Part shown: in pieces, positions 18,287 through 47,320 of the stretch
Position numbering within the stretch: position 1 is the first letter of the stretch
Layout of the letters: each line of letters opens with the position of its first letter
DNA from: Candidatus Coprenecus merdigallinarum
GTDB lineage: Bacteria > Bacteroidota > Bacteroidia > Bacteroidales > UBA932
DNA length: 64,000 nucleotides
Direction of reading: 5' to 3'
Assembly (NCBI GenBank): GCA_018712545.1
Contig: DVGV01000036.1
Location: 26,404 to 90,403, forward strand
Notes under the pieces: model-generated
The model's input: only the letters and a program-made list of their open reading frames with translations
What the model was told of the DNA's origin: nothing
Databases searched by the model: none
Program-made: the position numbers and the translations under genes

Positions 18287-18324
18287 AAAAAAGTGCGCCT
18301 CTAATCTCACGACTGGAGGCGCAC
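18287..18324 (-). terminator. Intrinsic terminator oriented for the minus strand (end of candidate sRNA copy A)
   Basis: Stem GTGCGCCTC/GAGGCGCAC with a 14-nt loop. A T6 tract is present only on the minus-strand side. Confidence 0.65.
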
Positions 18325-18366
18325 CGCTTAACTTAACCTAAAACTTAACCTATGAAAAAACTATCG
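18287..18366 (-). ncRNA. Candidate sigma-54-dependent small RNA, copy A (ends approximate)
   Basis: The conserved block GCGATAGTTTTTTCATAGGTTAAGTTTTAGGTTAAG starts about 12 nt after the -12 element and runs into the terminator. It is a paralogue of 31300..31380. No ORF on this strand. Confidence 0.45.
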
Positions 18367-18395
18367 CCTTATTCACATACAAACTCCGTGCCAAA
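18333..18395. repeat. Dispersed repeat, copy A of 2 (homologous to 31347..31408)
   Basis: Hand alignment shows TTAACCTAAA(A)CTTAACCTATGAAAAAACTATCGC identical in both copies apart from one indel. A divergent 9 nt follows, then CAAACT-N-CGTGCCAAA. Confidence 0.8.
18378..18393 (-). promoter_or_regulatory. Sigma-54-type -24/-12 promoter, near-consensus (TGGCACGGAGTTTGTA)
   Basis: The minus strand reads TTGGCACG-GAGT-TTGTA. The -24 element is perfect; the -12 element is GT instead of GC. It lies 5 nt after the stop of the upstream gene. Confidence 0.45.
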
Positions 18396-25762: not shown

Positions 25763-28700
25763 CTACTTTTTCACTTCGACATACTCATATTCGAGAGCCG
25801 GACTGACCACTACGGCATCCACTGCCTCAGGGATATCCGCACCGCCGCGCAGCACCTTGAAGCTTACGCGGAACAACAGGCCGTCTCCGGATACGAGAGA
25901 CTTCCCGCCCAAGTTGACAAAGGTCGGATAGACCGCCTTCGTACCGTCAGTGTGCAGACGGTCGCGGGTAAGGTTCTCCATCTGCTGCAGGCCGGAGGCC
26001 TCCACACCGGCAAATTCCAATGCCGAGGCATCGTAGGGGAGGGCTACGCTCAGGGCATTGACCGTCTTGAGCGAATCTCCGTAGAATGACAGGGTCAGGG
26101 TATCGCCGGCTTTAAGAGGCTTGTCCTGCACCTCGACACGCAGACCGCCGCAGAGAGTGTCACCGGCGCTCTTATGGTACTCGCGCATCCAGTACTCGGT
26201 GTTGATTCCGCCGTCGAGACGCACTGCCACTGCTGAGATGTCGTAGGCGTCTATGAGGCCGTTGCCGTCTATATCACCGTCCGACACATAGTCGAAATCG
26301 CTGTCAGAGCTGCGCAGACCGGTGTAGTTCATGTAGGAGGTCAGGTCGTTCTCGTCCACCTTGCCGTCCTTGTTGATGTCGCCGGGGATGACAGTCTCCG
26401 TTCCGGGCACCTTGAAGACGTAGATCTCGCGGCCCGAGCCGTAGTTGTTCACCGCGTCGGATACAGCTATACGGATGTAGCGGGCTCTCGGGCCTCCGCC
26501 GAAGGTGAAGACCTTGGTCTGGCCGTCACGCTCCCACTCGAAGGCTCCGGCGGGAGTCCAGTCCTTGCCGTTCACGCTGTAGAAGACCTCACCCTTGAGC
26601 AGGACACCGTTGCCGGCATCTAAGCGGGGCAGGTACTCGAAGCGGTCGATATTGTTGATGCCCTGGAGATCGAGGGTAAGCTCGAAGGGCAGGGCCTTGG
26701 CCTGATACTTCGTATGCCAGGTGTCACCGCTCTCGGCCCAGTCGAAGAGCCTCCACACCTCGAAGCCCTCCTGAGAGGGGAAGGAGCAGGATCCTACGAT
26801 ACCGCGGATGGCCCATTCTAAAGGATTGCCCTCGGTGGTGCAGCTGTAGTCGGTCCAGTCCGAGGCCCCGGTCAGGTTGACTGCCCTCAGACGGAAGCTG
26901 TAGTCAGTCTCGGGCTGCAGGTCCGCGAATGTCAGGTAAGTGTTCCGGATGCCGGTATGCAGCAGGCCGTCGAACTCTATCTCATAGTAGTCGGCCAGCT
27001 CCTGAGGCTCCCACGCGAGGGTGGCGGCGTAAGGTTCCACCGTACTCTTGTCCGCCAGGATTACAGGCGCCGTCAGCTCTCCGCTGCAGATGCGGCTGTC
27101 GTCTGCCGGTGCATACTCATAGCCGTCGATGATGAGCACTACATCGTTCTGAGTGATGTCGCAGGCGGGGATGGAGACGGTCAGCACAGGATTTTTCCTC
27201 AGGTCCATCTTCTCGAACTCACTGCCGGGAGTGGCGAAGCGGTTGAGCTGAGGTGCCGCGTCATAGCTGTACTCCGCATTGACCTTCTTTCCCCCTACCT
27301 TCACGGTAACTTTCCTGGGCTCGGCCGTAATATTGACCCTCACCTGAGTGCTCTGATCCTTGACGAAGCCGTCGAAGCTGCCCTCGGCCGGATGAATGGT
27401 GAGAATGTACCTGCCGCCGGACAGAGAGGCGTCGATCCTAGTGGTAACGCTCTCTCCCGCTAGATAGCTCATCGTCCTGCCGTCATCGTCATACACATGG
27501 GTATGGTACTCGCCCTCTGCGGGCCAGCACTCGAAGATACGCTCGGAGGGATTGATCTGCGAGGGATTGTTGTTGGGACGTACCATCGGGATGACAGCGC
27601 CCTGACGCACGAACACGGGAAGCTTCCACAGCGGTGCGGGGAAATTCTCCATGACGCGTCCTCCTTCATAGACCGCTCCGGTAAAATAATCCACCCACCT
27701 TCCCTCGGGGAGGTAGATGCCGTCGCGGATGTCATTGCCGAGAGTATCGGCCTGGGTATCCTGATAGACGGGAGCTACGAGGAAATCGGGACCGAAGAGG
27801 TACTGGTAGCGGGTCGCGGGGGTATAGGTGTAGTCGTTGGGATAATCTATGAACATGGCCCTCATCAGGGGTTTGCCGTCCACTGCTTCGCGGGACCAGG
27901 TATAGGCGTAGGGCAGCAGCTCGGACTTGAGCTTGAGGTACATACGGTTGATGGAGGTCGCGGGTTCACCGAGGGCATGGGGATATTTCTCGTTGGAGCC
28001 CCAGCCGTCCATGTTGAGCTGCATGATGGAGAAGGTCTTCCACTGGAAGTCACGGGTGTTGATCACCGCATCGGCTCCGCCGAAGATACCGTCCATGTCG
28101 GAGCAGATGTTGGGCTGACCGGCCAGACCCGAGCCGATGTAGGTCGGGATATGGAAGCGGATGTACTCCCAGTCGCCGCCGGTCTGGTCGCCCGACCACA
28201 CTCCAGCATAGCGCTGGGTACCGGCCCAGCCGTCGAGGGTGATGATGAAGGGACGGGCGTCATCACCGTAGTAGGGCATGATGCCGGCCACATCGGCTAT
28301 ACCGTTGAGACCGAAGGAGTAGCCCCAGCCGACCCAGGCCACGTCTGTCTTGAGCACGCGGACTCCGGCGTCACGGACCTCCTTGACGATATCCCTCTGC
28401 AGCAGGGCCTCGATACCCTCCTTGGGATGCAGGTCGGACTGGGTCCAGAGGCCTATCTCGACGCCCTTCGAGCGGGCATAGTCACCGAACGATTTCAGGT
28501 TCAGGATATTGCTGTCGAGCGTGGAAGTCTGGCCGTAACCGGCGCCGTAACCGTCGTTGGGCAGAATCCATCCCAGGGGCATGTCGTGAGCCTCGTAGCG
28601 GTCCACCACGGCGCGGGCCGAGAACTGGTAGTTGTCCTTCTCGCCGTTGAGCGACTCCCTGATGCCGCCGTTGTCCTTCTGACTTTCCTTATACCGCTTG

Positions 28701-29572
28701 CCATCCTCGAAAGGCACGGTGCGGGGACCGTCGGCCTCCACCCACCAGTCGCGGTTGTAGGCATTGAGATGACCCTCATAGAAGGCAAACTTGGGCAGCA
28801 GCACCGGGTTGCCGGTAAGCTGATAGTAGGTGTCCAGCAGAGCCACAGGATCTCCGGCCACCATGACGAATACATCCATGTAATCCGTGTCGTGGGTAAG
28901 GGTCACGGTGCCTTTCTCAGCGGCTCCGAAATCGTATGCTCCGGGAGCAAATGTATGCCACATGATACCGTATCCGCCGGTCGACCAGTAATAAGGTGCG
29001 GGCGAAGCCACTCCTTCGTCGGTCCAGCTGTTCTCATTTACGATGTTGATGACACGTCCCTTGTGCGAGAAGCGTCCGTTCTGCACGCCTCCGCCGTAAA
29101 AATACTCATCGGGGGACTCGGCCAGCGTAAGGACGGTGCGGGTCTTGCCTCCGCGGCTCTCGAAGATCACGGGAGCAGTCTGACGCAGAACCTCCTTACC
29201 GCTGCGCAGGTCGGCAACGGTCATCATCGCGGTCTCCTTGTCGAAAGAGACACGGATAACTCCTGTAGACAGATGCCAGGCGTCCGCATCCTCCTCGATC
29301 GTGTAGGATACCCCTCTGCGGGGATTGCGGACAAGAATCTCGGCAGGCGGTTCTGCCTTTGGATCACGGACTATGCCTCCGTTGTCATCCCGGAAAAGAC
29401 GGAAGATATCCGGAGCATAAAAGTCCACTGTCATACGGTGACCGTCACCGAGGATAATCTCGGCAGCCGTAGGATTGAGGTGCATTGCCTCTTCTGCTGA
29501 TTCCGCTGAAAGGCAGTATCCAGTAGCTGCCGCGAGAATCAGGACTATGGTAATTTTCCCTCTTAATTTCAT
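25763..29572 (-). CDS. Multidomain GH31 glycosidase (FN3-like, discoidin/CBM32-like, dockerin-like and cohesin-like C-terminal modules)
   Basis: GH31-type blocks KTDVAWVGWGYS (nucleophile region), GVWSGDQTGGDW and CSDMDGIFGG; signal peptide. The C-terminus has two Ca-binding loops, DINKDGKVDENDL and DIDGNGLIDAYDI. Confidence 0.85.
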   Translation of the reverse strand: MKLRGKITIVLILAAATGYCLSAESAEEAMHLNPTAAEIILGDGHRMTVDFYAPDIFRLFRDDNGGIVRDPKAEPPAEILVRNPRRGVSYTIEEDADAWHLSTGVIRVSFDKETAMMTVADLRSGKEVLRQTAPVIFESRGGKTRTVLTLAESPDEYFYGGGVQNGRFSHKGRVINIVNENSWTDEGVASPAPYYWSTGGYGIMWHTFAPGAYDFGAAEKGTVTLTHDTDYMDVFVMVAGDPVALLDTYYQLTGNPVLLPKFAFYEGHLNAYNRDWWVEADGPRTVPFEDGKRYKESQKDNGGIRESLNGEKDNYQFSARAVVDRYEAHDMPLGWILPNDGYGAGYGQTSTLDSNILNLKSFGDYARSKGVEIGLWTQSDLHPKEGIEALLQRDIVKEVRDAGVRVLKTDVAWVGWGYSFGLNGIADVAGIMPYYGDDARPFIITLDGWAGTQRYAGVWSGDQTGGDWEYIRFHIPTYIGSGLAGQPNICSDMDGIFGGADAVINTRDFQWKTFSIMQLNMDGWGSNEKYPHALGEPATSINRMYLKLKSELLPYAYTWSREAVDGKPLMRAMFIDYPNDYTYTPATRYQYLFGPDFLVAPVYQDTQADTLGNDIRDGIYLPEGRWVDYFTGAVYEGGRVMENFPAPLWKLPVFVRQGAVIPMVRPNNNPSQINPSERIFECWPAEGEYHTHVYDDDGRTMSYLAGESVTTRIDASLSGGRYILTIHPAEGSFDGFVKDQSTQVRVNITAEPRKVTVKVGGKKVNAEYSYDAAPQLNRFATPGSEFEKMDLRKNPVLTVSIPACDITQNDVVLIIDGYEYAPADDSRICSGELTAPVILADKSTVEPYAATLAWEPQELADYYEIEFDGLLHTGIRNTYLTFADLQPETDYSFRLRAVNLTGASDWTDYSCTTEGNPLEWAIRGIVGSCSFPSQEGFEVWRLFDWAESGDTWHTKYQAKALPFELTLDLQGINNIDRFEYLPRLDAGNGVLLKGEVFYSVNGKDWTPAGAFEWERDGQTKVFTFGGGPRARYIRIAVSDAVNNYGSGREIYVFKVPGTETVIPGDINKDGKVDENDLTSYMNYTGLRSSDSDFDYVSDGDIDGNGLIDAYDISAVAVRLDGGINTEYWMREYHKSAGDTLCGGLRVEVQDKPLKAGDTLTLSFYGDSLKTVNALSVALPYDASALEFAGVEASGLQQMENLTRDRLHTDGTKAVYPTFVNLGGKSLVSGDGLLFRVSFKVLRGGADIPEAVDAVVVSPALEYEYVEVKK

Positions 29573-29618: not shown

Positions 29619-29767
29619 GTATTTTTTCAGACACCGCCGGACCTCTTTTCCCACGAACTTTCTATTGAACTGAGAGGATTAACATATTATACCGTTTTAT
29701 GTTGCAATTCTGAATTATTTTATGCTTATTTGCTTAAAATTTGAAACAAACACTAACCTTCATTTTT

Positions 29768-31273
29768 ATGGACAACAACATCCTGAAGTACAACATCAAT
29801 CCTCTCGTCAACGCTATCGGCAAGACACCCGATCAGTTTACGAAAGAGGACATAATCAATTTCATCACAGCCAACGACATCCGTGTCGTCAACTTCCGCT
29901 ACATCGCAGGTGACGGCAGGCTCAAGACCCTCAACTTCCCGGTCAGCAGCCTCCAGTATCTCGACCTGATCCTCTCGTTCGGAGAGAGAGTAGACGGCTC
30001 CAGCCTCTTCTCCTACATCGAGGCCGGCTCGAGCGACCTCTACGTCATTCCCCGTTTCTCAACGGCCTACCTCGACCCCTTCGCTGAGATTCCCACCCTC
30101 GGACTGCTCTGCTCCTATTTTACCAAGGACGGACTGCCCCTGGAGAGCTCTCCCGAGTACACCCTGCACAAGGCTCACGAGGAGTTCAGGAAGACTACCG
30201 GCTACACCTTCGAGGCCATGGGCGAGCTGGAGTTCTACGTCATCTATGACGACGACTGCTGCTTCCCCTCGGAGAATCAGCGCGGATACCATGAGTCCAC
30301 ACCTTTCACCAAGGTCGAGGCATTCCGCACCGAGGCCATGAAGCTCATCTCCCAGGTCGGCGGCAACATCAAGTACGCCCACTCCGAGGTAGGCAACTTC
30401 ACCCTCGACGGCAAGGTGTACGAGCAGAACGAGATCGAGTTCCTCGTATCGCCCGTAGAGTCCGCCGCTGACCAGCTCGTGATGGCCAAGTGGATTCTCC
30501 GCACACTGGCATGGCAGTACGGCTTCGATATCACCTTCGCTCCGAAGATCACCGAGGGCAAGGCCGGCAGCGGTCTGCATTTCCACACCCGCATGATGAA
30601 CGGCGAGCACTCCGTGATGCTCAAGGACGGCCGCCTCTCCGACGAGGCCCGCAAGGCCATCGCAGGCTACATGACCTGCGCCTCCTCGCTGACCGCCTTC
30701 GGCAACGCCAACCCTACCTCCTACTTCCGCCTCGTGCCTCACCAGGAGGCTCCCACCAGCATCTGCTGGGGCGACCGCAACCGTTCCGTACTCGTGCGCG
30801 TACCCCTCGGATGGACCGGCAGGAGCGACATGTCCGCCATCGCCAACGGACTGCCCCAGAATCCCGACATCGTGATGCCCGACAAGCAGACCGTGGAGCT
30901 CCGCTCAGGTGACGGCTCGGCCGACATCCATCTGATGCTCGCCGGACTGGTGACCGCCGCACGTATCGGCTTCGAGCTCCCCGACGCTCTCGAGATAGCG
31001 AAAAAGACCTACGTGGATGTCAATATCCACGACGACAAGAACGCAGCCATCCTCAACTCCCTCGCCCAGCTGCCCACCTCCTGCGCCAAGTCAGCAGACG
31101 AGCTGGAGAAGAACCGCGCCCTCTACGAGGCCAAGGGAGTGTTCTCAAAGAGCATGATCGACGGACGCATCGCGATGCTCCGCGCCTACAACGACGCCAA
31201 CATCCGTGAGGAGACCGCACGCGACAAGGGCCTGATGATGGAGCTTGTCCGCAAGTACTATCACTGCGGATAG
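29768..31273 (+). CDS. glnA: Glutamine synthetase (about 500-aa GlnA-family form)
   Basis: Beta-grasp N-domain (IRVVNFRYIAGDGRLKTL), KAGSGLHFH and NRSVLVRVP motifs. The ATG at 29768 (MDNNIL..) is preferred. Confidence 0.85.
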   Translation: MDNNILKYNINPLVNAIGKTPDQFTKEDIINFITANDIRVVNFRYIAGDGRLKTLNFPVSSLQYLDLILSFGERVDGSSLFSYIEAGSSDLYVIPRFSTAYLDPFAEIPTLGLLCSYFTKDGLPLESSPEYTLHKAHEEFRKTTGYTFEAMGELEFYVIYDDDCCFPSENQRGYHESTPFTKVEAFRTEAMKLISQVGGNIKYAHSEVGNFTLDGKVYEQNEIEFLVSPVESAADQLVMAKWILRTLAWQYGFDITFAPKITEGKAGSGLHFHTRMMNGEHSVMLKDGRLSDEARKAIAGYMTCASSLTAFGNANPTSYFRLVPHQEAPTSICWGDRNRSVLVRVPLGWTGRSDMSAIANGLPQNPDIVMPDKQTVELRSGDGSADIHLMLAGLVTAARIGFELPDALEIAKKTYVDVNIHDDKNAAILNSLAQLPTSCAKSADELEKNRALYEAKGVFSKSMIDGRIAMLRAYNDANIREETARDKGLMMELVRKYYHCG

Positions 31274-31299
31274 GAACCGGGGCCGGAGCCCCAAACGCA

Positions 31300-31380
31300 A
31301 AAGAGAAAAGGACATCAGCCACAGAAACTGATGTCCTTTTTCCTTATTAACCTAAACTTAACCTATGAAAAAACTATCGC
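31300..31380 (-). ncRNA. Candidate sigma-54-dependent small RNA, copy B (ends approximate)
   Basis: GCGATAGTTTTTTCATAGGTTAAGTTTAGGTTAA begins about 12 nt after a perfect -12 element and is followed by a hairpin and T-tract. No ORF on this strand. Confidence 0.55.
31306..31340. terminator. Bidirectional intrinsic terminator (glnA on plus, candidate sRNA copy B on minus)
   Basis: AAAAGGACATCAG / CTGATGTCCTTTT stem with a 9-nt loop and T-tracts on both strands. Confidence 0.75.
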
Positions 31381-31408
31381 TGTACCCTGATGCAAACTGC
31401 GTGCCAAA
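31347..31408. repeat. Dispersed repeat, copy B of 2 (homologous to 18333..18395)
   Basis: See copy A; aligned by eye. Confidence 0.8.
31391..31406 (-). promoter_or_regulatory. Sigma-54-type -24/-12 promoter, consensus match (TGGCACGCAGTTTGCA)
   Basis: The minus strand reads CTTTTGGCACG-CAGT-TTGCA, an exact match to TGGCACG-N4-TTGCW. Confidence 0.6.
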
Positions 31409-31419
31409 AGTCTTACAAG

Positions 31420-32361
31420 CTATGGAATCACGTACCGGGACTTCTGTACGGGCGGGGGACCCGCAGGCCCTGAACTACCAATACTCCGCACCTGGACTGA
31501 CCTGGTATCCCCACGTCCGCTGTTTCCCCTGAGAGCCGCCTTGAACTGCTGCGACGGATTCTCCGGATCATACTGAGGCACGGGCAGCGACGGATAATAG
31601 ACACTCGGATCGAAATTAGGGTCCAGGAATATCATATCATCGAACCAGGGCTGTCCCCCTACGACTGGCCGCGGCACGAGCATTTCCATCATCGAACCCT
31701 GCAGGAAGCCGCCTCCACCTCCGAGTATTCCCATTATTATCGCCACTACGGAATAGACGGCAGGATTCTGTTCCCGGACATCCCGCAGGAACTGAGGCAT
31801 ACTGCCCTCATTTATCATGCGGCTGAGTATCAGCCTCCGGTCCCTTGCCAGTATCTCGCCGACTCCCAGAGGACGGCTGGCCGCCCACTTCAGATTGTCC
31901 CCGACAACATCCAGCGGCAGATATCTCGGATGAAACGCCGACGCCGGCATCTGCTCCGGAGCCCCGACCAGATCCGTCAGCGCATCCTGCCGCAGATATT
32001 CTCCCCGCAGCCTCCCGTACCACTCCTGCCGCAGCTCCATAAGAAATCCCGCTCTTGCACGCAGCGCGTCCGGACTCACCGCCTCCTGCCCTTCTCCTGT
32101 GACCGGCATTTCTGCCGGCAACAGTCCCGCCGCCATCAGCACCGAATCCCTTCCGGCCTTATCCAGCATCCCGACCTCCACCGCCCGGTCCATCAGCGCC
32201 CGGATATCCGCCTCGTATTCCGCCACCTGCAACGCTGCCGTATCCCGATCCTGCTGCCGGACACCTTTCACAACCGCATCCGGCACCTGCGCCAGAACAC
32301 TGCCCGCGCAGCATGCCGCCAGTACCGTCACAGCCACATATTTTTTTACGGATTTTCCCAT
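31420..32361 (-). CDS. Secreted hypothetical protein (no recognisable family)
   Basis: Signal peptide MGKSVKKYVAVTVLAACCAGSVLAQ from the ATG at 32361. It has an internal Gly-rich hydrophobic segment (IIMGILGGGGGFLQG) and a Pro-rich tail. Coding-like composition. Confidence 0.55.
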   Translation of the reverse strand: MGKSVKKYVAVTVLAACCAGSVLAQVPDAVVKGVRQQDRDTAALQVAEYEADIRALMDRAVEVGMLDKAGRDSVLMAAGLLPAEMPVTGEGQEAVSPDALRARAGFLMELRQEWYGRLRGEYLRQDALTDLVGAPEQMPASAFHPRYLPLDVVGDNLKWAASRPLGVGEILARDRRLILSRMINEGSMPQFLRDVREQNPAVYSVVAIIMGILGGGGGFLQGSMMEMLVPRPVVGGQPWFDDMIFLDPNFDPSVYYPSLPVPQYDPENPSQQFKAALRGNSGRGDTRSVQVRSIGSSGPAGPPPVQKSRYVIP

Positions 32362-44521: not shown

Positions 44522-45514
44522 ATGAAATCCATCCTCGGAATAGGCAACGCCCTTACCGACATACTCGCAGTGCTCCCCGACGACAGTCTGCTCCGGCAGT
44601 TCCACCTGCCGGTGGGGAGCATGCAGCATGTCGACAAGGAGACAGGCAATAAAATCTGGCAGGTACTCAAGAAAATGGGAGCGCAGTACGTGGCAGGCGG
44701 AGCGGCCGGCAACACCATCACCGGCACCGCCGTGTTCGGAATGCCCTCAGGATTTATCGGCAAGGTAGGAGACGACGAGGTCGGCGCCCTCTACCGCTCG
44801 GACCAGGAGCGCAACGGCATCAAGTCGATACTCCTGACCGGCAGGGAGGACTCCGGAAGAGCCTCCGTCTTCATCACTCCGCCCAACGCCGAAAGGACAT
44901 TCGCCACCTACCTCGGCGCCGCGCTTGAGCTCTGCCCCGAGGACCTGAAGCCGGAGTATTTCACAGGATACGATTATTTCTTCATAGAAGGATACTTAGT
45001 GCAGAACCAGCAGCTCCTGAGGCAGGCCGTCAGGCTTGCCCGGGAGGCCGGCTGCTACATCGCCATAGACATGGCGTCATACAATGTAGTGGAGTCCAAC
45101 GACACCTTCCTACACGACATCGTGGAGCAGTACGTCGACATAGTCTTCGCCAATGAGACCGAGGCCGCAAGCTTCACCCGGCACGCCCCCCGCGAGGCCG
45201 TGGACATTATCGCCGGCATGTGCGACATCGCCGTCGTAAAGATAGGCGCCAAGGGTTCCTACATCAGGAGCGGGGACGAATTCCACCACATCGAAGCCTG
45301 CCCGGCCGATGTCAAGGACGCTACCGGAGCCGGAGACCTGTATGCCGCCGGCTTCCTCTACGCCCATGCGCTGGGTATGCCGCTGGACATCTGCGGGCGC
45401 GTAGGCTCCATCACCGCCTCCAAGGTAGTGGAGGTAGTGGGGCCCAAGATAGACATTCCGCGATGGAAAGCCGCCAAAAGAGAAATACGTGCGCTGATTG
45501 CCGAGAACTTATAA
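44522..45514 (+). CDS. PfkB-family carbohydrate/adenosine kinase
   Basis: GGAAGNT N-terminal motif and DATGAGDLYAAGFLY C-terminal PfkB signature. Confidence 0.85.
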   Translation: MKSILGIGNALTDILAVLPDDSLLRQFHLPVGSMQHVDKETGNKIWQVLKKMGAQYVAGGAAGNTITGTAVFGMPSGFIGKVGDDEVGALYRSDQERNGIKSILLTGREDSGRASVFITPPNAERTFATYLGAALELCPEDLKPEYFTGYDYFFIEGYLVQNQQLLRQAVRLAREAGCYIAIDMASYNVVESNDTFLHDIVEQYVDIVFANETEAASFTRHAPREAVDIIAGMCDIAVVKIGAKGSYIRSGDEFHHIEACPADVKDATGAGDLYAAGFLYAHALGMPLDICGRVGSITASKVVEVVGPKIDIPRWKAAKREIRALIAENL

Positions 45515-47320
45515 TTCCAGCATCTTCTTAACAGGCAACGCTGCCTTCTGAGCTGTCTCGGAGGGCAGCGTTACTGTTTTGCGCGGGTTCTGATGCAGCA
45601 GGGTCTCGAAGAGAGAGAGCAGGGTAACTTTCTTCATATCTCCGCAGATCAGATCTTCCGACAGGGGAATCAGTTCCTTGTCCGGAGCCTCCTGTCTCAG
45701 ACGGTGCATCACTCCGAGTTCCGTAGCTATGACAAACTGCCTGCAGTCCGACTCCCGCACGTGGCGGATGATACCGGATGTAGAATAGAAGAAGCAGCGG
45801 GGATTGCCGGTAATCTTCGGATCACCCGAGCAGGCGGCCTCGGGATGAATGAGAATCTCTGCCTCGGGATATTTCGTCAAAGCCTCCTCTACCAGCCTGG
45901 AGGTAATCCGCTCGTGGACATGACAGCTGCCCTTCCACAAGTCCATCTTCAGGCCCGCCGTAGAATTGACATACGCGCCCAGATTGCGGTCGGGAGCGAA
46001 AAGCACAGGTCTGCCACCGGCCTGGGAGCAGACTGTCCGCGCCACTTCTACAGCATTGGCGGAAGTGCAGCATATATCCGTAGCAGCCTTGGTCTGCGCT
46101 GTCGTATTGACATAGGATATCACCACTCCGTCCGAATGGCGTTTTCTCCACGCATGCAGATCCTCTCCGGTTATGCCGTCCGCCAGGGAACAGCCTGCGT
46201 CAGGGACAGGCAGGAGCACTTTCTTGCCGGGACAGAGCACGGCCGCCGTCTCAGCCATGAAGCGGACTCCGCAGAACACTATGACATCCGCATCTGCTGC
46301 AGCAGCCTTACGCGACAGCTCCAGGGAGTCCCCCACAAAGTCCGCAACATCCTGCACCTCTGCGGGCACATAATAATGAGCCAGTATCACGGCATTGTGC
46401 CTGTGCTTCATCTCCTTTATAGCCTTTGTCAGATATTCCGGAGTAAGCTGGATATTCATACTGATGTCCAAGGCCTTGACGGTGTGCGTAAGAGCTCCGA
46501 CGCTTATGAAGTCTACCCCTGTCTGCGCCACTTCGCGCACCCTGCCGAGAGTCATGTTGCCTGATGCCTCGGTTTTGGCCCTGCCGCCGATAATATTCAC
46601 TGCATCGCGCATCATGGGAGTGGACATATTGTCCAGCATGATGATGTCAGCCCGTGCGTCAAGAGCCTCCTTGACCTCGTCAAGCGTGGTGGCCTCGACC
46701 TCTACCTTTATACTTGAGGGCACCCTGGCACGCACCTGTTCCACGGCCCGGGCTATCGAGCCGGCCATCTTGATGTGGTTGTCCTTGATCATGGCCATGT
46801 CGTACAGTCCCATGCGGTGGTTGGTGCCGCCTCCGTCCTTTACCGCCATCTTGTCGGTGACTCTCATTCCCGGGGCGGTCTTGCGCGTGTCGAGCAGACG
46901 GGTATGCGTGCCCTTGAGCTCAGCCACGTACTTAGCAGTCTCGGTAGCTATACCGGACATCCTCTGAAAAAAGTTAAGTGCCGTCCTCTCCGCCTTGAGC
47001 AGAGCCGGATAGCTGCCTTCCACACGGAGTATCACATCCCCCTTGCTCACCCTGTCCCCGTCATGGAGCATCGGTGTCAGCACTATGTCATTCTGGAAAC
47101 GGCGGAATACCCTTTCCACTATCGGAAGGCCGGAGATGACCCCGTCAGCCTTGGCCGTCATGGTGGCCACTGCCGCTGTAGACTCCGGAATAATCGAGTC
47201 TGTGGTAACGTCTCCCGAGGCTATGTCCTCGTCAATTGCCAGATCTATCAATCTGTCCACCAGTTCTTCCCGGCGGAGCTGCTCTGTCGTCATATCTTTC
47301 TGTATTTTATTGTTGTTCAT
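45509..47320 (-). CDS. nadC/nadA: Fused nicotinate-nucleotide pyrophosphorylase (NadC, N-terminal) and quinolinate synthase (NadA, C-terminal)
   Basis: A single 603-aa ORF. NadC motifs: ERTALNFFQRMSGIAT, DTRKTAPGMR, GGGTNHRMGL, IMLDNM, GALTHTVKALDISMNI. These are followed directly by NadA motifs: NAVILAHYY, ADFVGDSLELS, GVRFMAETA, CCTSANA, GSCHVHE. The start could alternatively be the ATG at 47293. Confidence 0.85.
   Translation of the reverse strand: MNNNKIQKDMTTEQLRREELVDRLIDLAIDEDIASGDVTTDSIIPESTAAVATMTAKADGVISGLPIVERVFRRFQNDIVLTPMLHDGDRVSKGDVILRVEGSYPALLKAERTALNFFQRMSGIATETAKYVAELKGTHTRLLDTRKTAPGMRVTDKMAVKDGGGTNHRMGLYDMAMIKDNHIKMAGSIARAVEQVRARVPSSIKVEVEATTLDEVKEALDARADIIMLDNMSTPMMRDAVNIIGGRAKTEASGNMTLGRVREVAQTGVDFISVGALTHTVKALDISMNIQLTPEYLTKAIKEMKHRHNAVILAHYYVPAEVQDVADFVGDSLELSRKAAAADADVIVFCGVRFMAETAAVLCPGKKVLLPVPDAGCSLADGITGEDLHAWRKRHSDGVVISYVNTTAQTKAATDICCTSANAVEVARTVCSQAGGRPVLFAPDRNLGAYVNSTAGLKMDLWKGSCHVHERITSRLVEEALTKYPEAEILIHPEAACSGDPKITGNPRCFFYSTSGIIRHVRESDCRQFVIATELGVMHRLRQEAPDKELIPLSEDLICGDMKKVTLLSLFETLLHQNPRKTVTLPSETAQKAALPVKKMLEL
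45537..45580 (+). terminator. Possible terminator for the PfkB gene, embedded in the 3' end of the convergent nadC-nadA ORF
   Basis: AACGCTGCC / GGCAGCGTT stem (18-nt loop) followed by ACTGTTTTG. The loop is large, so the call is weak. Confidence 0.3.

Follow-up and report, generated by a model that had tools for sequence, protein, structure and literature searches.

Two short, related segments on the minus strand of a Candidatus Coprenecus merdigallinarum contig raise the question of whether each is a gene of its own and, if so, what it makes and which promoter it uses. Both segments, here called copies A and B, lie in a stretch of 64,000 nt that was analyzed as a whole and is referred to below as the window. 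An earlier note on this DNA had read copy B as a candidate small RNA (sRNA) gene with a sigma-54 promoter and copy A as its paralogue. Judged by sequence comparison, copies A and B are a real pair of sRNA genes. We further consider it fairly probable that they encode trans-acting sRNAs of about 80 nt which belong to a Bacteroidales-wide family, are distant kin of FopS and GibS, are transcribed by sigma-54 RNA polymerase and act by blocking translation initiation.

Two copies of one unit in the window

The sequence TGGCACGCAGTTTGCA in front of copy B is the sole exact match to TGGCACG-N4-TTGCW in the window, while shuffled versions of the window contain a mean of 0.01 such matches (1 of 100 shuffles had any). 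The earlier note had placed this consensus 13 nt past the stop codon of the gene at 31420..32361, where the minus strand reads CTTTTGGCACGCAGTTTGCA, and the match is indeed there. Allowing one mismatch adds a single further match among 128,000 strand-positions, TGGCACGGAGTTTGTA at 18393..18378, in front of copy A. A typical sigma-54 promoter has GG at -25/-24 and GC at -13/-12 within TGGCAC-N5-TTGC; copy B agrees with this exactly and copy A has GT at -12. The canonical sigma-ABfr promoter (-33 TTTG, -7 TAnnTTTG) is not present at the window copies, which have TGGCAC-N5-TTG(C/T) instead.

A conserved block at the expected transcription start, repeated near 18333..18366, had also been proposed. 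Its 27-nt core GCGATAGTTTTTTCATAGGTTAAGTTT occurs exactly twice in the window (31380..31354 and 18367..18341; 0 expected), and the full blocks of copy A (35 nt, 18367..18333) and copy B (34 nt, 31347..31380) are distinguished by a single additional T. From the -12 base to the initial G of the block there are exactly 11 intervening nt in both copies, and a sigma-54 promoter would therefore be predicted to place +1 on that G (31380 and 18367). The predicted fold of either copy has an unpaired 5' stretch of about 35-40 nt ahead of a terminator hairpin, with z = -3.5 for copy A and -4.2 for copy B, and the hairpin and T-tract expected behind the block of copy B were located (Table 1).

Promoter and block had been described as conserved and the remainder as diverged. 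This holds for the terminator stems, which differ between the copies, and goes too far for the promoter-to-block spacers, which were called completely different and have 5 of 11 bases in common. The statement that this strand carries no open reading frame (ORF) is likewise correct for the RNA body and not beyond it, as short minus-strand ORFs start in the terminator of copy B (31322 and 31315), antisense to the glutamine synthetase gene glnA.

Relatives in other genomes

Relatives were collected using the 19-nt RNA core TTTTTCATAGGTTAAGTTT alone as the search pattern, without promoter information, in one genome per species from 185,579 species. At least 119 stretches were found, and 118 unique family-like copies were recognized among the matches listed, so the comparison with related genomes suggested in the earlier note did return a family, one whose terminators covary (see below). 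Nearly all matches listed are from metagenome-assembled genomes (MAGs) of gut or rumen Bacteroidales, including Candidatus Cryptobacteroides, 'Alistipes sp.', Candidatus Coprenecus (Rikenellaceae), Muribaculaceae and Prevotellaceae. In short form, the block reads GCGATAGTTTTTTCATAGG.

Orthologues of copy A were found behind the same upstream gene in L042, L069, L077, L085 and L102, and those of copy B in L073, L103, L115 and L124; for each window paralogue an orthologous locus was reported in at least five other species-level genomes. Because orthologues of both copies occupy the same loci, the duplication is old and both copies have been maintained. L077 also has a B-type copy behind an unrelated upstream flank with its promoter intact, which indicates that the conserved unit starts at about -28.

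Two sRNA copies lie within one 8-kb stretch in L060, L077, L093, L098 and L116, at times on opposite strands, which suggests local duplication or clustering. Family members were also detected on predicted viral contigs of IMG/VR (L247, L248, L249, L250, L251, L253 and L254); L247 and L254 have a sigma-54-type promoter and the remaining ones have no recognizable promoter. Three records titled Butyricicoccaceae, Faecalimonas and Gastranaerophilales (L013, L083 and L109) contain a Bacteroidales-type sRNA with a sigma-54-like promoter and are most likely mis-binned contigs.

Four matches from Flavobacteriia and Saprospiraceae (L014, L023, L024 and L070) are not sRNAs. Here the 19-mer falls on gene starts, AAACTTAACCTATGAAAAA, of ORFs of 204-368 aa, with the general form AAACTTAACCT-ATG-AAAAA. 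These matches at ordinary gene starts indicate that the seed of the sRNA mirrors a generic Bacteroidota translation start.

Selection at the RNA level

Alignment A1 is a curated subset of 62 sequences; an automated heuristic for terminator ends over-extended the stems into A/U runs. Covariance model R1 was built from 62 sequences including both window copies, and the full-length scores of these copies (74.2 bits for A and 61.8 bits for B) are therefore high partly by construction. A third copy was not found in the window using R1, the next score being 13.6 bits.

As the 19-nt core served as the search pattern, its invariance in the 62 sequences of the alignment is by construction. The block columns that flank it, AUAG before and UAGGUUA after, are at least 90% conserved. 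RNAalifold assigned 12 base pairs to the terminator, and compensatory double changes were found in 12 of 12, with stem sequences that differ among the members. Terminator cells are paired in 91.8% of cases vs 61% in column shuffles and 31-48% when the partners are slid, and 200 cells are changed on both sides vs 57 in shuffles. A helix kept by compensatory changes despite this divergence points to selection on the RNA and not on DNA ends. These data are best read in the way that the earlier note proposed, as paralogous trans-acting sRNAs that each have a promoter and a terminator of their own.

Promoter classes

The motif TGGCAC-N5-TTGC, with at most two mismatches and the -12 C located 19-21 nt ahead of the anchor, was found in 86 of the 118 copies listed (73%), 35 of them perfect, compared to a background of 0.28% at the same offsets from random positions of the same DNA. 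This comparison strengthens the sigma-54 assignment made from the window. The logo of the sigma-54-type copies also agrees with the extended consensus at sites that played no part in the selection (T-28 to T-26, A-22, C-21, R-20, T-16, A-11 and A-10), and its information content collapses from -7 to +1. The stricter motif TGGCA[CT]-N5-TTGC[AT] occurs 41 times in the window and the 888 kb of fetched DNA combined, and 40 of the 41 occurrences are directly upstream of an sRNA.

Another 21 of the copies listed (18%) have the canonical Bacteroidetes -7 box TAnnTTTG instead, 8-16 nt upstream. In six Prevotellaceae copies TAnnTTTG is located 24 nt upstream and accompanied by an extra 5' hairpin. Such a hairpin, GTGCGAAAGCAC, stands ahead of the seed in the Prevotellaceae MAGs L009, L039, L088, L097 and L113. 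Two unrelated promoter types whose predicted starts fall within a few nt of the block suggest that the block start is the 5' end of the RNA and that the upstream motif is its promoter. We regard this coincidence as the strongest computational argument for placing the 5' end at the block and for reading the GG/GC motif as a promoter.

Genuine Bacteroides FopS genes, when re-read, showed TTTG...TAtcTTTG-tattG, matching the published promoter form. GibS is driven by a non-canonical promoter, PM2 (PMC7366714). Within 70 nt upstream of the match in 120 metagenomic GibS loci (L126-L245), PM2 reads TGAACAAA-N~14-GTTATATA-N3-GTG. We considered whether PM2 could be a hidden sigma-54 promoter and rejected this, as the 120 loci lack GG-N10-GC. 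Across Bacteroides variants PM2 resembles the -35/-10 pair of extracytoplasmic function (ECF) sigma factors. Neither the TAnnTTTG promoter of FopS nor PM2 is sigma-54-like, and one RNA family thus comes with three kinds of promoter, the sigma-54-like class being the third.

Sigma-54 is functional in this phylum, and the regulons described for Bacteroidota are dominated by chaperones, proteases and envelope stress. In Flavobacterium psychrophilum, mutagenesis has validated a -24/-12 motif that drives expression of groES/EL, lon, dnaK, grpE-dnaJ and genes for envelope stress (PMC9723704). A comparative study from 2025 found sigma-54 of Bacteroidia to be associated with an enrichment of chaperones, proteases and ABC exporters (PMC12316311). 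Full-text searches found no literature linking sigma-54/RpoN with FopS, GibS or any Bacteroidota sRNA.

Relationship to FopS and GibS

Among the trans-acting sRNAs of gut Bacteroides, FopS and GibS are understood best; they determine which systems for glycan uptake are made. At Rfam gathering thresholds, only tRNA-Met and tRNA-Gln were detected over the whole window, so that the Rfam check of both copies proposed in the earlier note gave nothing at this level. Below threshold it did yield full-length matches: in a local E-value scan the FopS model (RF04319) aligned end to end with copy B at 26.9 bits and with copy A at 26.2 bits, over model positions 1-71 (E of about 0.05 in a 400-nt search). 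The best FopS score among the relatives is 35 bits (L043). Copy A was matched by the GibS model (RF04182) at 19.5 bits, against a gathering threshold of 115. In the reciprocal direction, model R1 matched true FopS genes of Bacteroides from end to end at 18-22 bits. Because full-length sub-threshold matches were obtained both ways, the window RNAs may be regarded as a sister branch of FopS by distant homology, outside Rfam's definition of FopS.

FopS was described as a family of paralogous sRNAs, with 14 paralogues in Bacteroides thetaiotaomicron (PMC11697453). Its single-stranded 5' seed was shown experimentally to pair with susC-like mRNAs at their start codon and to block translation; FopS RNAs are bound by RbpB, a protein with an RNA recognition motif (RRM), and respond to bile (PMC11697453). 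The window copies follow the same design, with an unpaired 5' seed across the anti-start codon and one terminator hairpin, often with a GUGA-type loop, in about 70-90 nt; the two types overlap at about 70-85 nt. The seeds are about 75% identical, sharing the pattern UUUUUCAU(A/G)G ... UUA(A/G) ... AGGUUA, in which UUUUUCAU includes the anti-start codon. Several paralogues per genome are also a FopS trait, and two copies lie within the 64-kb window. The differences are a seed that reads AGG-UUAAGUUUU versus GGUAUUAGAUUUA upstream of the anti-start codon, 5-6 extra nt at the 5' end, the sigma-54-like promoter in place of the TAnnTTTG of Bacteroides FopS, and a host that is Rikenellaceae-like and not a member of the Bacteroidaceae.

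With GibS, the window RNAs have in common the first approximately 35 nt, which form the seed region of R1, and a promoter that is not the housekeeping one. GibS differs in its length of about 145 nt compared to about 82 nt, in its second seed and extra hairpins, and in using PM2 and not GG-N10-GC. The earlier note knew of no described sigma-54-dependent sRNA family in Bacteroidales. This applies to the promoter and not to the RNA: the RNA type is known and not an orphan, whereas the sigma-54 promoter class, its dominance in Bacteroidales other than Bacteroides, the occurrence of the RNA beyond Bacteroidaceae and the switching between promoters appear to be undescribed.

Proposed function

Each of the two genes is a self-contained unit that begins at about -28. 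Its sigma-54-type -24/-12 promoter is followed by 11 nt of non-conserved spacer, then by a conserved 5' region of about 35 nt that lacks structure, and last by a Rho-independent terminator hairpin without constraint on its sequence. In the mechanism that we propose, sigma-54 RNA polymerase, together with an activator of the enhancer-binding ATPase type, would start transcription at the G of GCGAUAG. The 5' region AUAGUUUUUUCAUAGGUUAAG could then pair across the start and first codons of target mRNAs (...CUUAACCUAUGAAAAAACUAU..., Met-Lys-Lys-Leu), and the anti-start-codon seed UUUUUUCAU could block translation initiation in the way that FopS acts on susC mRNAs.

The seed is complementary to generic ...CCUAUGAAAAAACUAU starts that encode Met-Lys-Lys-Leu. 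Judging from the homology with FopS, the targets would be mRNAs of secreted or outer-membrane proteins with a ...CCUAUGAAAAAA start, and genes for SusC/TonB-dependent transporters or for proteins with signal peptides that begin with AUGAAAAAACU would be fitting candidates. No SusC gene was found in the window, and all the fetched DNA together yielded a single SusC-like start. A search for an RRM (RbpB-like) motif in the window was also negative. The sigma-54 input could couple this repression to the signal sensed by the activator, plausibly envelope or proteotoxic stress.

On a broader reading we hold the balance to be even. According to it, these RNAs are a large and so far unrecognized branch of FopS/GibS that extends through Rikenellaceae, Candidatus Cryptobacteroides, Muribaculaceae and further uncultured Bacteroidales of gut and rumen. 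Sigma-54, acting from scattered minimal promoters, dozens in number and with no detectable enhancer, would serve as a post-transcriptional master switch by which secreted and outer-membrane proteins are repressed at their start codons, and the family would have been rewired in evolution among sigma-54, sigma-ABfr and PM2 promoters.

Evidence against and alternative explanations

Several findings weigh against an sRNA of the FopS/GibS kind driven by sigma-54. Neither rpoN nor a gene for an enhancer-binding protein was found in the window, its 10-kb flanks on identical contigs or 0.9 Mb of related loci; for the window and 125 loci, translations in all six frames were searched for GAFTGA, Walker A and RpoN box motifs and gave no genuine match. 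A common activator site was not detected upstream between -225 and -30 by 7-mer enrichment, by palindromic dyads with spacings of 0-16 or by comparison of copy A with copy B, and the lack of such a site is unusual for classical sigma-54 promoters. The copy A lineage has TTTGTA, with GT at -13/-12, vs TTTGCA, and keeps it in 6 of 6 orthologous loci. Both copies start 4-13 nt after the stop codon of a same-strand gene with no terminator between. Neither copy reaches the FopS gathering threshold of 56 bits, their scores being below half of it. Finally, comparison of the seed with ORF start regions of the window, 119 loci and the 10-kb flanks by RNAduplex identified no convincing target among nearby genes; the top matches were the antisense strand of the sRNA itself and Flavobacteriia starts selected by the search pattern itself.

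Enriched upstream k-mers were considered as enhancer candidates and rejected, since they reflect coding conservation of the orthologous upstream gene. Three readings follow from the lack of a common enhancer: the activator may work without a DNA site, the site may be degenerate, or the motif may be used in a non-classical way. The gene for the activator may lie outside the sequence searched. With its GT, the copy A lineage has conserved a deviation at the position where sigma-54 promoters are most constrained.

One alternative accepts the sRNA as real and assigns GG-N10-GC to a different sigma factor or to a regulator that binds DNA, in which case the transcription start would lie elsewhere. 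The results on enhancer site, enhancer-binding protein and rpoN in the sequence searched would agree with this, as would the GT at -12 in copy A, the many ECF sigma factors of Bacteroidetes and the non-canonical PM2 of GibS. We consider it unlikely, because the extended sigma-54 positions T-26, A-22, C-21, T-15 and A-11 fit too, the GG-to-GC spacing is invariant, the distance to the block equals the canonical distance from -12 to +1, and ECF-type and PM2 promoters have an entirely different appearance. The mutagenesis in F. psychrophilum (PMC9723704) also argues for sigma-54 as the factor that reads this motif.

A second alternative would make the conserved segment mainly the 3' untranslated region (UTR) and terminator of the upstream gene, with the RNA arising by read-through and processing and the promoter-like motif playing a minor part. 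FopS-14 of B. thetaiotaomicron is such a 3'-UTR-derived sRNA (PMC11697453), and the IMG/VR copies L248, L249, L251 and L253 have no recognizable promoter. Some RNA could indeed come from read-through and processing at copies A and B because a same-strand gene lies directly ahead with no terminator, and the 3' UTR is a possible secondary source. That it is the main source is improbable in view of the -24/-12 motif in 73% of the copies listed, across unrelated upstream contexts and species. Conservation starts at about -28 and not in the upstream gene, L077 keeps the motif behind a different flank, and TAnnTTTG usually stands in where the sigma-54 motif is missing.

It is very unlikely that copies A and B are a short mobile or repeated DNA element, either phage-borne or like a miniature inverted-repeat transposable element, that has no RNA function. 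The multiple copies could be taken in this sense, as the window contains two and five related loci each have two less than 8 kb apart, and so could those on IMG/VR viral contigs; the FopS authors noted phage-borne FopS and proposed phage-mediated spread (PMC11697453). Orthologues at the same locus in other species-level genomes, and a helix kept by compensatory changes while spacer and terminator diverge, speak for an RNA gene. Reading through both copies revealed no terminal inverted repeats or target duplications, and no dedicated repeat search was made. The plus-strand mini-ORF (MKKLS...; 31365..31532) that had been named as a possible product does begin with ATG-AAAAAA in surroundings typical of a Bacteroidota gene start, and we give it next to no weight, as its length varies from 5 to 133 aa (median 19) across 114 copies with just MKKL[F/S/Y] conserved, the codons are less conserved than the sequence ahead of the ATG, and in the window it runs antisense into the neighboring gene.

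Comparison with other regulatory systems

Transcription of sRNA genes by sigma-54 has precedents in GlmY, CrcZ and NrsZ, and in Qrr1-5 of Vibrio, which are paralogous multi-copy sRNAs with their own sigma-54 promoters; in Qrr the single-stranded targeting region is conserved and the terminators diverge. The RNAs discussed here resemble Qrr in being multi-copy, in having a sigma-54-type promoter at each copy, and in combining a conserved targeting region with divergent terminators. They have no sequence relationship to Qrr and occur in another phylum. LuxO sites lie upstream of Qrr genes, whereas no enhancer is detectable here, and Qrr action depends on Hfq, whereas Bacteroidetes have no Hfq.

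In enterobacteria, MicA, RybB and MicL are driven by sigma-E and shut down the synthesis of abundant outer-membrane proteins. By analogy alone, the present RNAs could be a similar case of a stress sigma factor driving sRNAs against outer-membrane proteins, with a different sigma factor, sequence, chaperone and phylum.

If our interpretation is correct, the FopS/GibS family would be a Bacteroidales-wide regulator, with relatives far outside Bacteroidaceae that mostly use sigma-54. For sigma-54, which has no well-defined role in Bacteroidia so far, the family would supply many unambiguous promoters that are easy to assay, and it would show in nature how promoters can be exchanged while the RNA stays the same. 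A mechanistic question raised by these promoters is how many dispersed sigma-54 promoters could be activated without a recognizable enhancer. The 19-nt seed combined with the -24/-12 motif may also prove useful as a precise annotation probe for thousands of MAGs, in which the Rfam threshold for FopS misses these RNAs.

Feature coordinates and genomic surroundings

Positions of the features are given in Table 1. The terminator region of copy B also scores on the plus strand with the terminator half of model R1. This terminator is probably bidirectional and also ends the convergent glnA.

Table 1. Features of copies A and B and of their neighboring genes, in window positions.
Feature	Positions	Strand	Remarks
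Copy B sigma-54-type promoter	31391..31406	-	TGGCACGCAGTTTGCA; GG at -25/-24 (31405/31404), GC at -13/-12 (31393/31392)
Copy B sRNA, about 82 nt	31299..31380	-	From predicted +1 (G at 31380) to end of U-rich tract
Copy B conserved 5' block (seed region)	31347..31380	-	GCGAUAGUUUUUUCAUAGGUUAAGUUUAGGUUAA; holds anti-start codon CAU; predicted unpaired
Copy B intrinsic terminator	31299..31340 (both strands 31299..31348)	-	Terminator scan; stem GGACAUCAG 31336..31328 / CUGAUGUCC 31318..31310; A-run and U-run on flanks, U-rich tract 31309..31299
Copy A sigma-54-type promoter	18378..18393	-	TGGCACGGAGTTTGTA; -12 GT in place of GC
Copy A sRNA, about 81 nt	18287..18367	-	Predicted +1 is G at 18367
Copy A terminator	Stem 18325..18316 / 18301..18293, then U6 18292..18287	-	From the fold
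Upstream gene of copy B	31420..32361	-	313-aa hypothetical protein, no Pfam match; stop 13 nt before copy B promoter, no own terminator ahead of the sRNA
Glutamine synthetase (glnA), convergent	29741..31273	+	Pfam Gln-synt_C and Gln-synt_N; same gene calls on identical contigs

The window surroundings are of a housekeeping type and include UvrA, NadA/B/C, MurC, a hydrogenase, GH20, GH84 and GH31 glycosidases, and glnA. The GH31 glycosidase (25763..29572, minus strand, 1269 aa) carries F5/8 type C and fn3 domains together with a borderline Dockerin_1 match (23.4 bits vs a cut-off of 22.9) and a sub-threshold Cohesin match, a combination that is unusual for Bacteroidales. An ORF of 603 aa (45509..47320, minus strand) contains NadC (quinolinate phosphoribosyltransferase) and NadA (quinolinate synthase) domains in one protein beside a NadB-like flavoprotein and may be a nadC-nadA fusion.

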